Assembly (NCBI GenBank): GCA_963666205.1
Contig: OY762654.1
Span: 1,312,001-1,376,000 of the forward strand
From: Synergistales bacterium
Lineage (GTDB): Bacteria; Synergistota; Synergistia; Synergistales; JAFGMB01
Direction of reading: 5' to 3'
DNA length: 64,000 nt
Part shown: piece after piece, positions 58,237 through 64,000 of the stretch
Position numbering within the stretch: the first letter of the stretch is position 1
Layout of the letters: every line of letters begins with the position of its first letter
Position numbers and translations under genes: made by a program
The notes under the pieces: model-generated
Databases searched by the model: none
The model's input: the letters and a program-made list of their open reading frames with translations, nothing else
What the model was told of the DNA's origin: nothing

Positions 58237-59199
58237 ATGTCTACATTACCTTACCAACTCCACAATAACATAGCGCTGCTTTGTGAGAGAAGAGAATACG
58301 AACAGGCTCTTGGTCTGGCAAAACAGGATCTGGAGAAAGCAGAAGAGATCCTGGGGAAAAACCACCCTTACCTTACTCCATACCTGGATAAGATCGCGGA
58401 AATATATGAATTACAAGGTCATCATTCCCATGCAAGGTCTATTTATTACAGAACTATTGAGATATGGGAAGAAACTTTTGTGCCTGAATATAACATCCTC
58501 TCAGATATCTTTCGCGGTAAAAGAAAGGAAAATGAACGAAAGTACGGCTTTCCCTATGAGAACTGCCTTCAACTCACCCCGGAACTCCACCTGGGGACAG
58601 GGGACAACCGCAGATGCTATGTGCACCCGGATAACCCCGGGCTCTGCATAAAGATAGATAAACCCTGGAATGAGGGACTTCATAACAGCACATTTAAACG
58701 AATTAAAAGGCTGTTTATGCCCTGGCTGGCAGATTTTTCATCCAACAGGGAAGAAGCAAGATTTTACCGGACCCAAAACAGGTTTCCTTGTGAAAAGTTC
58801 TATGATCATGCTCCACGCTGCCATGGAATAGCTCTCACAAACCTGGGACCTGGCCTGGTGTTTGAACGTATCAGAGACGATGACGGGAATTACTCAGCCC
58901 GCATGGACTCATATCTGGAAAAGTATCCTGGACAGATTAACCATGTTATCCGTCTCATAGAAACCCTTTACGAGGACATGCTCCAACTGGATAAACTGAT
59001 CTTTTGCTGGAACAAAGAAAACCTGATCGTCCAGCAGAAAGATGATAACAATGACAGGTTAATAGTCATAGACTGGAAAAGCGAAGGGAGACCGAACAAC
59101 GATCTCCCGGTAATCAACTTATCTTCGTATCTTGGAAGAAGAAAGATGTATAAGCAGTTCAAAGAACTGGTTTCAAGTCTAAAAAAACAGACCAATTAA
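58237..59199 (+). CDS. TPR repeat fused to a YrbL-like kinase-fold domain
   Basis: LGKNHPY....L..IA.IY..QG TPR; LGTG..R.CY.HP.....CIKI; PR.HG...TNLG.GLV. Confidence 0.8.
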   Translation: MSTLPYQLHNNIALLCERREYEQALGLAKQDLEKAEEILGKNHPYLTPYLDKIAEIYELQGHHSHARSIYYRTIEIWEETFVPEYNILSDIFRGKRKENERKYGFPYENCLQLTPELHLGTGDNRRCYVHPDNPGLCIKIDKPWNEGLHNSTFKRIKRLFMPWLADFSSNREEARFYRTQNRFPCEKFYDHAPRCHGIALTNLGPGLVFERIRDDDGNYSARMDSYLEKYPGQINHVIRLIETLYEDMLQLDKLIFCWNKENLIVQQKDDNNDRLIVIDWKSEGRPNNDLPVINLSSYLGRRKMYKQFKELVSSLKKQTN

Positions 59200-60115: not shown

Positions 60116-60322
60116 AATTATCCTCCTCACGGTTCCCATGTATTATCTCATTCATTGATGTTGAATCCCTGATCTTCCATGAAAATAGAAACCATAGCTT
60201 CTCGTATAATGCACAAAGTTCACATTGTCAATTTCTGGAAATAATAAACTTAATGAACCACTTTTCAAATAAGATTTGAATTATTGCTTATAATGGGGGG
60301 GATTATAGAAAGGATGAGACCA

Positions 60323-61033
60323 ATGCCAAGGCTCGAAGATATAAAGATATTTTATGAACTCATGGACATGCTGGAAATAAAGCTTCGCAACCGTAAGGCT
60401 CGCGGAGAGAGGATCCTGTCCCAATGTGAGGGGAATATGGGATGGCCTGAAAGGGGAATATGTTTCTTCTTCGAACCTGGAGAACAAAGAAGCGACTCAG
60501 GTTCAGGGTACCGTGTTGTCAGAGTAGATACCCATGCTCTTTCCAGCGGATCAAAAATAGCTCTCTGGACACGATTGAGCCAGCATAAGGGAAACAGCAG
60601 AACCGGAGGAGGAGATCACAGGGAATCTGACTTCCGAAAGATAATAGGTTATTCCCTTATCAATAAACATGGCTCTCTTCGTTCATCCACCTGGGGAAAG
60701 GGCAGTTCTGTCATAAAAAAGATCCAACGGCAGGAACTCGCTATTGAACAGGAGGTCAGCAACATCATTGGCCAGATGCCCTTTTTATGGCTGGAAGTAA
60801 ATGATGAACCATCAGAGGATAGCCAGAGGGCCTACCTTGAAAAGAACATTATCGCCCTTTTAAGCAACTGGAATAAAGAGGAAAGGGTTGATGAACCTTC
60901 TGAAGAATGGCTTGGAAGGTACTGCCCTATTGAAGAAGTCAAGGATTCCGGCCTGTGGAACTCCGACCATGTAGATATTGATTATGACCCGGCCTTTCTG
61001 AAAGTATTTCAGATGTATATCGATAAGATCTGA
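60323..61033 (+). CDS. Hypothetical protein with degenerate GIY-YIG-like motifs
   Basis: RGICFF..., RVVRVDTH, LWTRLSQH, YLEKNII, GLWN; start uncertain (60284/60314/60323). Confidence 0.7.
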   Translation: MPRLEDIKIFYELMDMLEIKLRNRKARGERILSQCEGNMGWPERGICFFFEPGEQRSDSGSGYRVVRVDTHALSSGSKIALWTRLSQHKGNSRTGGGDHRESDFRKIIGYSLINKHGSLRSSTWGKGSSVIKKIQRQELAIEQEVSNIIGQMPFLWLEVNDEPSEDSQRAYLEKNIIALLSNWNKEERVDEPSEEWLGRYCPIEEVKDSGLWNSDHVDIDYDPAFLKVFQMYIDKI

Positions 61034-61119: not shown

Positions 61120-61166
61120 AATAAACAGGCGGAGGTTTACAGAGTCATACCTCCGTCTGTTTATTT
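61120..61166. terminator. Bidirectional terminator between convergent genes
   Basis: ATAAACAGGCGGAGGT / ACCTCCGTCTGTTTAT. Confidence 0.75.
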
Positions 61167-61244: not shown

Positions 61245-63011
61245 TCAGGATAACAACTGTTCCATATCCCTGAGAGCAAAGGGGAGTTGTTCAATAAAAG
61301 CATTCCTTTCCCCTTCTATGGAACTGAAACCGGTGACCGAAAGGATGAGATGATCGGACCGCTGAAGGTAACGGACAGCCAGGCCGTCTTCCTGAGCTGG
61401 ACCGTAGCCTGCAGACTCTATACCCTCTCCCGAGGTCGTACTGGTGGATATAGCAATATCCTGCAGAACTATCCATGCAGGGCTCCTGTAAATAGAGGGC
61501 AGGTTATCCAGAGGCCTGTTCCCCGCTTTCCCTTCCGCAATAGCAAGGAGGAGCCCCAGAATTCCATCAATTCCTTCTCCATTCATACACTGGGAGATCC
61601 TGTTTTTATGCAAATTAAGCGCGCCTCGAAGCACTTCCGCGCATTCACTGCGAGAATTTCCCTGTTCCTCAATTAGCTGCAGAAACTGTTTTGTACCCTC
61701 ATTAAAGGGACGCATCCCTTCTGTCCGCCCCTGCTGAAATTGGCGGAGCATCACCGATTCAAAAGCAGAACGAACACTTCCCCATGCTCTCTTCTGGGCC
61801 AGAAACAGGGCTGTCTGCAAGAATCCGTCAGGACTGACACCTAGTTCTTTTATCCTATCCTTGCCAAAATCGTTGAAACGAAGAAGGCTGAAACAGGTTT
61901 TCGAAAAGAGCTGCGATGCCTCTCTTTTCGCATATGTAACGGTCTCCTTAAGCTCACTCCCTGCTACGGGAGTGACCTCCTCGGCAACTGGGGCCTCTCC
62001 GGAAACAAGGCCATCCTGTCTGGTTCCATTACATATATGGCGTACAAAACGCCCCATGGGTGTTCCATCCCGCCTGGAATGTTCAAAGTTTATACCTATC
62101 CGGCCATTTCCAGGAACGATGAGCTGCAGGGACTTGTCGAACCAGCGGTTCCCCGGATCACCATAGAGGATATCCCTGGAAAGGTCTTCGTCATTCATTG
62201 GTCCACACCGGTCAAGACATAGAACAAACAGGCTTTTTTCAACAGTTTCAATTGCCCTTGCCACGGATGGGGAATTTCGAATAAGGCTTTTTCTGAGGGA
62301 AGCCCATTTTGTTCTTGGCAGACAAGTCAGTGCAGCCAGTGGAAATGGCTCTGGTTCGCTGCTGATATTAAGGATCGATGCAAAGGATCTTTCAAGCCCC
62401 TCACCCGGGAAAATTTCTCCATTATCATCCAGGACCCTCTGCCGGAAGATATGTCCATTACAGATAACAGTGATCCAGTCAGTTCTGTTTCGGATGTTCC
62501 TGTCAATATCTTTTCCTGGAATCCTGGTCATACCGATAATATCTTCATACTGTTCCATGGATAAAGGCAGACCCTTCCAGCAGTCGGGTCCCATTTCACC
62601 CTTCTGGATATCTTTGTAGAACTTCAGAATAGTCTGTACAGCCCTTGCAGCAAGCTCTGTGTTTCCTATTCCCAGTTCTTCTCCCCTGGGATCCAGGAGA
62701 TAAAAGGGGTTACTCTGAACAGGCAGAGATGCCCTATGGGAAAGATACCACTTCTCCCAGTAGGGCATCCATTTGAGAACCTCCGGATCGGAGGGATAAA
62801 GATCATCAAGTTCAGCACGAAGGATCTGTCCCTCCCTTCCAGGTTTCAGAAAGCTTTTTGCCGCTTTCAGGCTCTCTCCAAATTCATTATCCGACAGCAA
62901 AGGTTTTGACCACTTAAGCAGTTGCTCACAGGTTCTCTCCAGGGGTGGAAAGGACCATAAAGGTATCTTTTCTGTCAAAGCTGCTGCGATTCTATCTCTG
63001 GAATTGAACAA
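61245..63011 (-). CDS. Choline/carnitine O-acyltransferase family protein
   Basis: YL..R..LPV.SNP, PLSM.QY, TRIPG..D, NRWFDK, catalytic EHSRRDG, FGK..IK...SPD, GRTE, STS, GYGP...DG; start TTG 63011 behind AAAGGGGA. Confidence 0.9.
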   Translation of the reverse strand: MFNSRDRIAAALTEKIPLWSFPPLERTCEQLLKWSKPLLSDNEFGESLKAAKSFLKPGREGQILRAELDDLYPSDPEVLKWMPYWEKWYLSHRASLPVQSNPFYLLDPRGEELGIGNTELAARAVQTILKFYKDIQKGEMGPDCWKGLPLSMEQYEDIIGMTRIPGKDIDRNIRNRTDWITVICNGHIFRQRVLDDNGEIFPGEGLERSFASILNISSEPEPFPLAALTCLPRTKWASLRKSLIRNSPSVARAIETVEKSLFVLCLDRCGPMNDEDLSRDILYGDPGNRWFDKSLQLIVPGNGRIGINFEHSRRDGTPMGRFVRHICNGTRQDGLVSGEAPVAEEVTPVAGSELKETVTYAKREASQLFSKTCFSLLRFNDFGKDRIKELGVSPDGFLQTALFLAQKRAWGSVRSAFESVMLRQFQQGRTEGMRPFNEGTKQFLQLIEEQGNSRSECAEVLRGALNLHKNRISQCMNGEGIDGILGLLLAIAEGKAGNRPLDNLPSIYRSPAWIVLQDIAISTSTTSGEGIESAGYGPAQEDGLAVRYLQRSDHLILSVTGFSSIEGERNAFIEQLPFALRDMEQLLS

Positions 63012-63024
63012 GTTAGATTCCCCT

Positions 63025-64000
63025 TTAGAGAAGGGCTTTTTCGATCCTTGCCGTTGCCTCTGGATCCCTGACCCAGGATCTCCATAGTTCGGAGTGGGTC
63101 TGCAGGAACCATTTCGCGGTTTCAGCCGGACCTGTGCCATTCTTCTTCATGTAAGCCAGAGCTTCATTGGTCAGTTCAAGAGAAGTCTTATAACGCTCCA
63201 GCATATCCCGGATCTTCGGTGAACCTTCCAGGAAATCTCGATTAGCGACCTTGAGGACTCTGCATTTAGGGAATGCACAGCCTCCCGTTTCGTTCCAGAC
63301 TTTTTCATCATAAGGAGGTTCTTCCAGTTTAGTCATGTCATACATTCCAAGAATAGGTGTGGGTTCCCAGTAATATGCCAGCACTGGTTTACCTTTTTCA
63401 TAGGCTTCAGCGATGGAAATAGCGAGTGCTGCGGCTGAACCTGTAAAGAAATTCACGAATGTATCATCAAGGCCGTAGGTTTTCAGACGTTTAGCATTTG
63501 TCACGCTAACGATCCACCCCGATGGCCCATTGTTGAAACGTCCCTTTGTCTTCTTTTCCGGATCCCTGAAAAGTTCCCAATAGCGGGAAAGGTCCGTAAC
63601 GGATCTGAGATCTGGCGCCAGAGGTTTGATGCCCCGGGTTTCATCCCCTTCGATAACGTATGTTGGAACATACCAGCCCTGTGGTGCATCCGGAAAATTC
63701 TTGCCAAGGCTTACGATCTCTCCGCGTTTTTCTGCCTTTTCCCAATAAGAAGCAGAATTATCTATCCACGCTTCCATAGCGATCTGCAGATCCCCTCTTT
63801 CTAGTCCCATAAAACCGGGGATCTCTTCTACAAATGTATATCCAACTTCCCGGTTCCATCCATTTTCTATGAGAAAACCGGCCACGCGGTTATGGAACTG
63901 GACACTTTCCCAGCTGAAATCGCCAAAGATTATCTTCCCCTGGTCGCCATAACCGGGCAGAGATCCCCCGAAAAGTAATAAGACTGCCAGAATAAACCCG
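63025..64000 (-). CDS. Glycine betaine/choline/carnitine-type ABC substrate-binding protein (ProX/OpuAC family), 5' end outside the window
   Basis: Frame open to the window edge (..GDFSWESVQFHNRVAGF..); MEAW, QGWYVP.YV..G, P.GW, YYWEPT, LEEP. Confidence 0.88.
   Translation of the reverse strand, partial: GFILAVLLLFGGSLPGYGDQGKIIFGDFSWESVQFHNRVAGFLIENGWNREVGYTFVEEIPGFMGLERGDLQIAMEAWIDNSASYWEKAEKRGEIVSLGKNFPDAPQGWYVPTYVIEGDETRGIKPLAPDLRSVTDLSRYWELFRDPEKKTKGRFNNGPSGWIVSVTNAKRLKTYGLDDTFVNFFTGSAAALAISIAEAYEKGKPVLAYYWEPTPILGMYDMTKLEEPPYDEKVWNETGGCAFPKCRVLKVANRDFLEGSPKIRDMLERYKTSLELTNEALAYMKKNGTGPAETAKWFLQTHSELWRSWVRDPEATARIEKALL

Follow-up and report, generated by a model that had tools for sequence, protein, structure and literature searches.

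Esters of quaternary amines are cleaved hydrolytically in Pseudomonas aeruginosa by the acetylcholinesterase ChoE and the acylcarnitine hydrolase HocS, and in the Pseudomonas Cbc uptake system one ATP-binding cassette (ABC) translocator is reportedly served by several orphan binding proteins, none of which is to our knowledge paired with an acyltransferase. The acyltransferase family PF00755 is itself known, and its bacterial genes are already annotated by name in databases; all solved structures returned for the enzyme studied here are eukaryotic, and a recent preprint using PF00755 mentions bacteria, in its available text, only with regard to fungal secondary metabolism and microbial interactions. 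Here we examine two minus-strand genes in the last 2.9 kb of a 64,000-nucleotide (nt) stretch from the genome of a marine anaerobe of the Synergistales (contig OY762654.1; G000:C1:1312001-1376000), hereafter "the window," in which a gene for an OpuAC/ProX-type substrate-binding protein is followed by one for a PF00755 acyltransferase. We propose, with a probability of about 50%, that the pair is a scavenging module through which an O-acyl ester of a net-cationic choline-type amine would be imported and its acyl group passed to coenzyme A (CoA). The enzyme fold is known; what is new is its conserved genomic setting and the binding-protein subfamily that goes with it. The features concerned are as follows:

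63025..64000, minus strand: OpuAC/ProX-type periplasmic substrate-binding protein (PF04069, 164.1 bits)
63012..63024, minus strand: intergenic spacer of 13 nt, carrying the acyltransferase ribosome-binding site AGGGGA
61245..63011, minus strand: PF00755 acyltransferase of 588 amino acids (aa), TTG start, no signal peptide (Pfam, alignment, AlphaFold2 model)
61120..61165, minus strand: terminator-like hairpin with an interrupted 16-bp stem, about 80 nt past the acyltransferase stop (RNA folding)

That the two genes form a tight unit is well founded, given the 13-nt spacer, the lack of a terminator between them and RNA-library contigs that span their junction. The binding-protein gene is cut by the window end, with its first 12 codons beyond it (full gene L003:3026-4036, window-equivalent 63025-64035); its TAA stop lies at 63027-63025, and the acyltransferase begins 13 nt on with a TTG at 63011-63009, behind an AAGGGGA ribosome-binding site. 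A list of open reading frames (ORFs) gives a longer 631-aa acyltransferase frame from an ATG at 63140 that overlaps the binding-protein gene; the TTG is favoured because 588-aa database relatives align across 100% of the query. In the spacer, neither reading of the sequence nor a consensus scan gave a minus-strand terminator, hairpin or promoter-like site. As for co-transcription, which the original prediction (made from the sequence alone) had assumed, contigs from marine-sediment metatranscriptomes span the junction in 4/4 runs from 2 studies, one of them identical to the window (DNA carry-over is possible); in single runs, parts of the stretch have no cover. The same prediction had described an acyltransferase of about 588 aa with EHSRRDG and STS motifs, 13 nt after the stop of an OpuAC-type binding protein, and this description stands on Pfam, on alignment to carnitine acetyltransferase (CrAT) and on the start site. 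It had also placed a terminator after the enzyme gene, where we find the hairpin at 61120-61165 (-23.3 kcal/mol, z = -2.9; 2/200 shuffles fold as well), though the consensus scan, whose sigma-70 and terminator counts are at or below shuffle expectation, did not list it; no promoter is assigned from that scan. Because an A-tract and a U-tract flank its stem, this hairpin may work in both directions. We propose no riboswitch, as an Rfam scan of the gene pair and the 425-nt region upstream gave chance-level matches only.

The acyltransferase matches PF00755 (Carn_acyltransf) at 417.8 bits (cut-off 22.3) across profile positions 4-572 of 574, and its AlphaFold2 (AF2) model (predicted local distance difference test score, pLDDT, 95.1; predicted template-modelling score, pTM, 0.94) is placed by Foldseek at template-modelling (TM) scores of 0.88-0.91 to CrAT, CPT2, ChAT and CrOT, which points to their two-domain fold. 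The EHSRRDG motif spans residues 310-316, with His311 aligned to the catalytic His343 of mouse CrAT (a His kept in 79/80 aligned family members), while S522-T523-S524 align with CrAT S552-T553-S554 and K384 and K388 with CrAT K419 and K423. Transition-state stabilisation is the role of the last Ser of the STS motif, and the pair of Lys contacts the 3'-phosphate of CoA. We checked the residue mapping from CrAT against the family alignment; the roles of the CrAT carnitine-site residues are those of the CrAT/ChAT structure literature, in which Arg518 pairs with the carnitine carboxylate and Tyr452, Ser454 and Thr465 form hydrogen bonds to it. At that site the window enzyme departs from a carnitine acyltransferase: Arg518 of the CrAT DRH motif is replaced by Gly483 together with a one-residue deletion, and Tyr452 by Phe417, one loss beside two retained residues, Ser454 (Ser419) and Thr465 (Thr430). 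Met564, the acyl-tunnel gate of CrAT, corresponds to Ala534, a small residue that would permit acyl groups longer than acetyl.

At full length the binding protein has 336 aa; its signal peptide is basic and hydrophobic and contains no lipobox Cys. Its AF2 model (pLDDT 92.3) has DmpX (rank 1), TmoX, ProX and ChoX as top Foldseek matches, with OpuAC also matched, in keeping with a type-II binding-protein fold, and its closest solved relative is RnDmpX (PDB 7yle; E 1.1e-34), which binds dimethylsulfoniopropionate (DMSP). It falls far below the NCBIfam cut-offs for the ProX model (48.5 vs 215) and the choline binding-protein model (47.2 vs 379). According to its description (PMC10030565), the RnDmpX pocket is made up of Trp35, Thr64, Trp84, Glu113, Trp152, Ala153, Tyr200 and Trp202, with Thr64 bonding the DMSP carboxylate. 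All four Trp and the Tyr are conserved in the window protein, in an aromatic cage of W42, W90, W174, Y221 and W223 that is invariant in 121/121 sequences (the query and its 120 best database homologs). The carboxylate contact differs: Thr64 corresponds to Glu71, and Glu113 aligns to a gap. At residue 71, the same 121 sequences divide into 28 with Glu, 60 with Ser, 31 with Thr and 2 with Val or Leu.

Residue 71 follows the pairing with the enzyme. It is Glu in 21/21 Synergistales copies coupled upstream of an acyltransferase and Ser in 3/3 downstream paralogs of the same loci, while the four other OpuAC paralogs of the window genome have Ser, Thr, Ser and His; a Ser-bearing subclade nested in the Glu71 clade corresponds to copies whose genes do not immediately precede that of the acyltransferase. 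Glu71 also occurs in 3/5 coupled clostridial copies, which in a tree from a quick search branch far from the Synergistota Glu clade, and an approximately unbiased (AU) test rejects a single clade of clostridial and Synergistales Glu71 proteins (p = 2.6e-7, at a cost of 103 log-likelihood units), the tested group having been chosen after the tree had been inspected. Judged from these sequences, Glu71 arose independently in Clostridia and Synergistales. A scan for other convergent specificity positions in the binding protein returned residue 71 alone, a result that is partly circular as the groups were defined by it. Glu71 and the lost Arg518 argue for a net-cationic, choline-type ligand over a zwitterion (betaine, carnitine, DMSP).

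The original prediction had called bacterial members of the family sporadic, which does not suit this order, as PF00755 matches at E <= 1e-40 occur in 49/261 Synergistales genomes and 20/71 genera, and a match is present in 20/41 close relatives. Its expectation that the pairing would be conserved is borne out. In a survey of the best 30 loci of 30 Synergistales genomes with 1.5-kb flanks, a binding-protein gene stands directly upstream on the same strand in 21 (gaps of 17-264 nt), and with 6-kb flanks the adjacent binding protein is present in 8/12 genomes. As this arrangement is conserved across genomes, the pairing of binding protein and acyltransferase goes beyond chance. The enzymes agree with the window copy as well, with Gly or Glu at the Arg518 position in 29/30 loci. 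Among named relatives, the closest is a metagenome-assembled genome (MAG) that bears the label Acetomicrobium hydrogeniformans and has an acyltransferase with 75% identity, which places the organism within Synergistota in that genus or near it. In-frame TAG recoding in two relatives was considered and rejected, the TAG sitting upstream of the true start.

A different arrangement is found in another Synergistales family, where an Arg-keeping PF00755 gene lies directly after permease and ATPase genes in 4 genomes (L030; L009-L012 are also listed). In L030 (G034:C2, seen with long flanks), a Ser71-type binding-protein gene just upstream of the permease/ATPase genes makes this a complete importer operon. 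The Arg-keeping, ABC-linked operon is likely an (acyl)carnitine counterpart of the window module.

Coupling to quaternary-amine genes recurs outside the phylum, where a pattern scan of species-representative genomes yielded 67 loci. An OpuAC binding protein lies within the flanks in 18 of these, bet genes in 14 and a 405-aa membrane protein in 13, with at least one of the three in 32. In Clostridia, the binding-protein gene is directly upstream of the enzyme at five loci (L038, L040, L046, L063, L067). Five Photobacterium loci (L043, L050, L053, L054, L090) have betB, betA, a choline binding protein, permease, ATPase and acyltransferase in this order on one strand, and a sixth (L051) runs from betI through binding protein, permease and ATPase to acyltransferase; i.e., the acyltransferase is an extra, apparently unstudied gene in the well-known choline-to-betaine operon. 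The assignments of BetA, BetB, BetI and, in Photobacterium, the choline binding protein (TIGR03414) rest on NCBIfam scores above equivalog or subfamily cut-offs. In loci of Psychromonas, Vibrio and Agarivorans, the acyltransferase gene is directly preceded by a bet cluster that runs on the other strand, and in the three Psychromonas loci the bet gene next to the enzyme is betI; in all, eight gammaproteobacterial loci, including one further Photobacterium, have the enzyme beside or divergent from bet genes (L034, L041, L042, L044, L045, L047, L058, L070). The functional link between quaternary-amine uptake and the acyltransferase is well founded, because it combines the tight unit, the conserved pairing and neighbours in amine transport and choline oxidation. 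Hence, of the operon importing a quaternary-amine ester that the original prediction had envisaged, the tie to amine uptake stands; its acylcarnitine option is unlikely for the window copy, because Arg518 has become Gly483 and a Glu occupies the carboxylate-contact position of the binding protein.

The residues of the enzyme sort with these neighbourhoods. In the enzymes of Clostridia and of bet-linked gammaproteobacterial loci, Arg518 is replaced by Thr, Ser, Ala or Gly and Thr465 by Ile or Leu, whereas both residues are kept in 7/7 sampled eukaryotic proteins, in the paralog from the window genome, in the ABC-linked enzymes of family f5 and in several other lineages. PF00755 proteins divide, on this signature, into Arg-keeping (presumably carnitine-like) and Arg-less (presumably choline-like) classes. 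That the Arg-less clade, wired to bet and choline ABC genes in marine gammaproteobacteria and to Glu71 binding proteins in Synergistota and Clostridia, constitutes a widespread bacterial system of CoA-dependent choline-ester transacylation is a tentative proposal, to which we would give a little less than an even chance.

Other neighbours recur as well. For many marine gammaproteobacteria, the 405-aa membrane protein (e.g., L070:1821-3038, minus strand) is the acyltransferase's tightest neighbour; it belongs to no NCBIfam family, matches BCCT below threshold only (22.2 bits, cut-off 27) and could transport the enzyme's substrate. In two Vibrio genomes (L055, L057), the acyltransferase lies 376 nt after a cluster of bacterial-microcompartment shell, PduS-like and aldehyde and alcohol dehydrogenase genes ending in an acetate/propionate kinase; a choline (cut) cluster was rejected here, as neither genome has a CutC-level match, and with its 376-nt gap the cluster was left unused as evidence. 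For a small regulator encoded after the clostridial enzymes, the only match is a sub-threshold one to MarR_2, and we do not propose it as a choline sensor.

In a PF00755 tree of 79 rows from a quick search, with 7 eukaryotic proteins and without ChAT, the window acyltransferase falls in a Synergistales-only clade inside a 70-row all-bacterial branch, apart from the 7 sampled eukaryotic proteins. Two MAG proteins, from Chloroflexales (L069) and Pseudomonadota (L076), group with the eukaryotic sequences, which could reflect contamination or transfer from eukaryotes. The clade of the window enzyme is narrow, with a single 50%-identity cluster more than 50% identical to that enzyme; counting eukaryotes, 869 clusters match at E <= 1e-30 and 4063 at E <= 1e-3. 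No NCBIfam model matched either PF00755 copy of the genome.

The original prediction had proposed to look upstream of the pair for an ABC permease and ATPase and for cut, cai or grd genes; none lies beside the pair in the 14-kb upstream neighbourhood, and the closest translocator is 855 kb away. The genome has five OpuAC paralogs (at about 490, 520, 889, 1375 and 1961 kb of G000:C1), the others being 44-53% identical to the window copy, and ABC ATPase and permease genes (G000:C1:518403-520158) come after one copy alone, that at about 520 kb; the next-best ATPase/permease pair is far less similar (41% and 29% identity). The window binding protein is thus an orphan, as are four of the five OpuAC binding proteins. 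Upstream of its gene, a 425-nt gap leads to a divergent gene for a pyridoxal phosphate (PLP) enzyme (L003:4461-5525, plus strand), whose best NCBIfam match is the D-cysteate sulfo-lyase CuyA (344.8 bits, under the cut-off of 450), and beyond it to a 2932-aa ORF (L003:5803-14601, minus strand). On the other side, a 249-aa ORF at window 60284-61033 (plus strand) is convergent with the acyltransferase and has no Pfam or NCBIfam match, and a 320-aa protein at window 58237-59199 (plus strand) has TPR repeats at its N terminus together with a kinase-like domain of the YrbL/PhoP regulatory network type (PF10707, 92.8 bits).

Elsewhere in the genome, a second PF00755 gene (2494081-2495946), 32% identical to the window copy, keeps the carnitine-type Arg and starts 45 nt past a true butyrate kinase gene (TIGR02707, 436 bits vs a cut-off of 289; L008, G000:C1:2492972-2495946 with the kinase). 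The place after butyrate kinase is usually occupied by a phosphotransbutyrylase gene. This gene order is kept in two same-family relatives (L006, L007). The genome has three Pta/Ptb-family and three butyrate-kinase genes in total, the other two butyrate-kinase genes lying close to a pair of ptb genes around 1766-1771 kb, and together these could provide a route from acyl-CoA to ATP. No CutC-level match, MttB, choline kinase or BCCT was found in the genome, and two GRDB-type reductase genes lie elsewhere in it.

In the proposed mechanism, the secreted binding protein would hold the trimethylammonium head of the ester in its Trp/Tyr cage, with Glu71 in place of the carboxylate-contacting Ser/Thr fitting the pocket to a pure cation. 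The loaded protein would dock on the sole close OpuA-type permease/ATPase (G000:C1:518403-520158), and the cytoplasmic PF00755 enzyme would then move the acyl group, via His311, from the ester to CoA, giving acyl-CoA and the free amine. The benefit would lie in cheap activated acyl groups, plus free choline in bet-carrying bacteria, rather than in net ATP. Four points here are inferences: choline or a near relative as the amine, the ester as the form imported, acyl-CoA formation as the direction of the reaction, and use of the distant translocator. Import of the ester is favoured because it fits the logic of the bet operons, to which it would supply more choline, because the partner of the PF00755 paralog is a butyrate kinase and because ATP could be made from acyl-CoA with the products of the three Pta/Ptb and three butyrate-kinase genes. 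A further reason is that the genome offers no evident use of choline itself: with no CutC-level match, MttB, choline kinase or BCCT, the obvious gain would be the acyl part of the ester.

Several observations weigh against this scavenging model. No binding protein lies within 1.5 kb upstream in 9/30 Synergistales loci, and the related genomes behind such counts are not independent samples. The junction contigs attest presence in RNA libraries and are not proof of one transcript. Docking on a translocator 855 kb away is itself an assumed step, and our literature search found no functional or biochemical study of a bacterial PF00755 member. ABC import costs ATP. The original prediction's idea of energy conservation is weakened because this cost would cancel the one ATP to be had from a short acyl-CoA. 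The pocket residue can also be read otherwise: Glu71 suits free choline at least as well as the ester, since an acidic side chain could accept a hydrogen bond from the hydroxyl. This is one reason to consider that the enzyme instead acylates imported free choline (or a close cationic amino-alcohol) from acyl-CoA, as a bacterial counterpart of ChAT serving export, signalling or buffering of the CoA pool. The family reaction is reversible, with an equilibrium for choline slightly toward the ester, all catalytic and CoA-binding residues are present, and the operon partner in Photobacterium is a choline-type binding protein above the TIGR03414 cut-off. We nevertheless regard choline acylation as possible but on balance doubtful: a fermenting anaerobe would pay one ATP-equivalent thioester per choline, neither window nor genome shows a use of the product or an exporter for it, the paralog next to butyrate kinase points to acyl-CoA consumption, and in the bet operons the enzyme would divert choline from betaine synthesis within the same transcription unit.

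That the pair is a canonical carnitine system, importing carnitine or acylcarnitine for a CrAT-like enzyme, would agree with the best solved matches of the enzyme, which are carnitine acetyltransferases (E 2.7e-57, TM 0.90), and with the retained equivalents of Ser454 and Thr465 at the carnitine site. Members of the window enzyme's clade moreover have an extra Arg, Arg314 in the window enzyme, three residues past the catalytic His, which could bind an anionic group and might replace Arg518, so a carboxylated acceptor is possible. Against this stand the changes of Arg518 to Gly and Tyr452 to Phe, the Glu of the binding protein where Thr or Ser contacts carboxylate ligands, and an apparent division of labour, with a separate Arg-keeping paralog in the genome and, in relatives, an Arg-keeping enzyme after a complete ABC operon, with Ser71 in the one such binding protein examined (L030); we consider the carnitine system unlikely. 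Still less probable, in our estimate, is an enzyme that acylates some other, non-quaternary alcohol or that has no metabolic link to the binding protein, the latter serving in sensing and sharing regulation only. Carnitine-acyltransferase-like domains of fungal polyketide synthases do act on polyols. No transporter genes adjoin the window pair, and 35/67 loci outside the phylum, several on short contigs, lack a quaternary-amine gene within their flanks, which counts against the scavenging model too. On the contrary, adjacency of binding protein and enzyme recurs independently in several phyla, Glu71 tracks the pairing in every Synergistales pair and has a separate origin in three clostridial pairs, and the enzyme is tied to betIBA.

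The comparative evidence gives bacterial PF00755 proteins a concrete, testable role linked to choline-type amines. If the scavenging model is true, cells take up acylcholines and keep the acyl group as acyl-CoA instead of hydrolysing the ester; run in reverse, the same system would be the missing bacterial enzyme for acetylcholine/acylcholine synthesis. Confirmation would extend bacterial choline and osmoprotectant metabolism by a new step and provide a candidate for bacterial acetylcholine turnover or synthesis, and residue 71 would then serve to predict, by a simple rule, the ligand charge of OpuAC-type binding proteins from sequence.

Set beside the described systems, the window enzyme shares with mouse and human CrAT (PDB 1ndb, 1nm8, 1t7q) its Pfam family and two-domain fold, a full-length match (TM 0.90, E 2.7e-57) and the conserved His, STS and Lys residues; unlike CrAT, it is bacterial, cytoplasmic and encoded behind a periplasmic binding protein, with Gly483, Phe417 and Ala534 for Arg518, Tyr452 and Met564. 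Animal ChAT (PDB 2fy2, 1q6x) has the same fold (TM 0.88-0.90) and likewise lacks the Arg for the carnitine carboxylate. In ChAT, Thr465 is changed to Val and Arg518 to Asn, and the bet-linked gammaproteobacterial and clostridial enzymes, with Ile or Leu at 465, parallel these changes, whereas the window enzyme keeps Thr there and is less similar to ChAT (E 3e-42) than to CrAT, with no ChAT in our tree. Its binding protein has RnDmpX of the DmpXWV importer as closest solved relative, with the four cage Trp and Tyr200 conserved, but it differs in having Glu71 for Thr64 and a gene apart from the permease and ATPase. Five OpuAC paralogs beside one close OpuA-type translocator resemble the Cbc arrangement, and by this analogy the translocator may be shared here. 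The betIBA-proXWV operons of Vibrionaceae and Sinorhizobium ChoX (PDB 2reg) are approached through the related acyltransferase that ends five Photobacterium operons, although the window pair has no bet genes beside it and its binding protein lies in the ProX/DmpX branch rather than with ChoX. Like ChoE and HocS, the window system would release a quaternary amine from its ester for amine acquisition; those hydrolases discard the energy of the ester bond, whereas the window enzyme would hand the acyl group to CoA.

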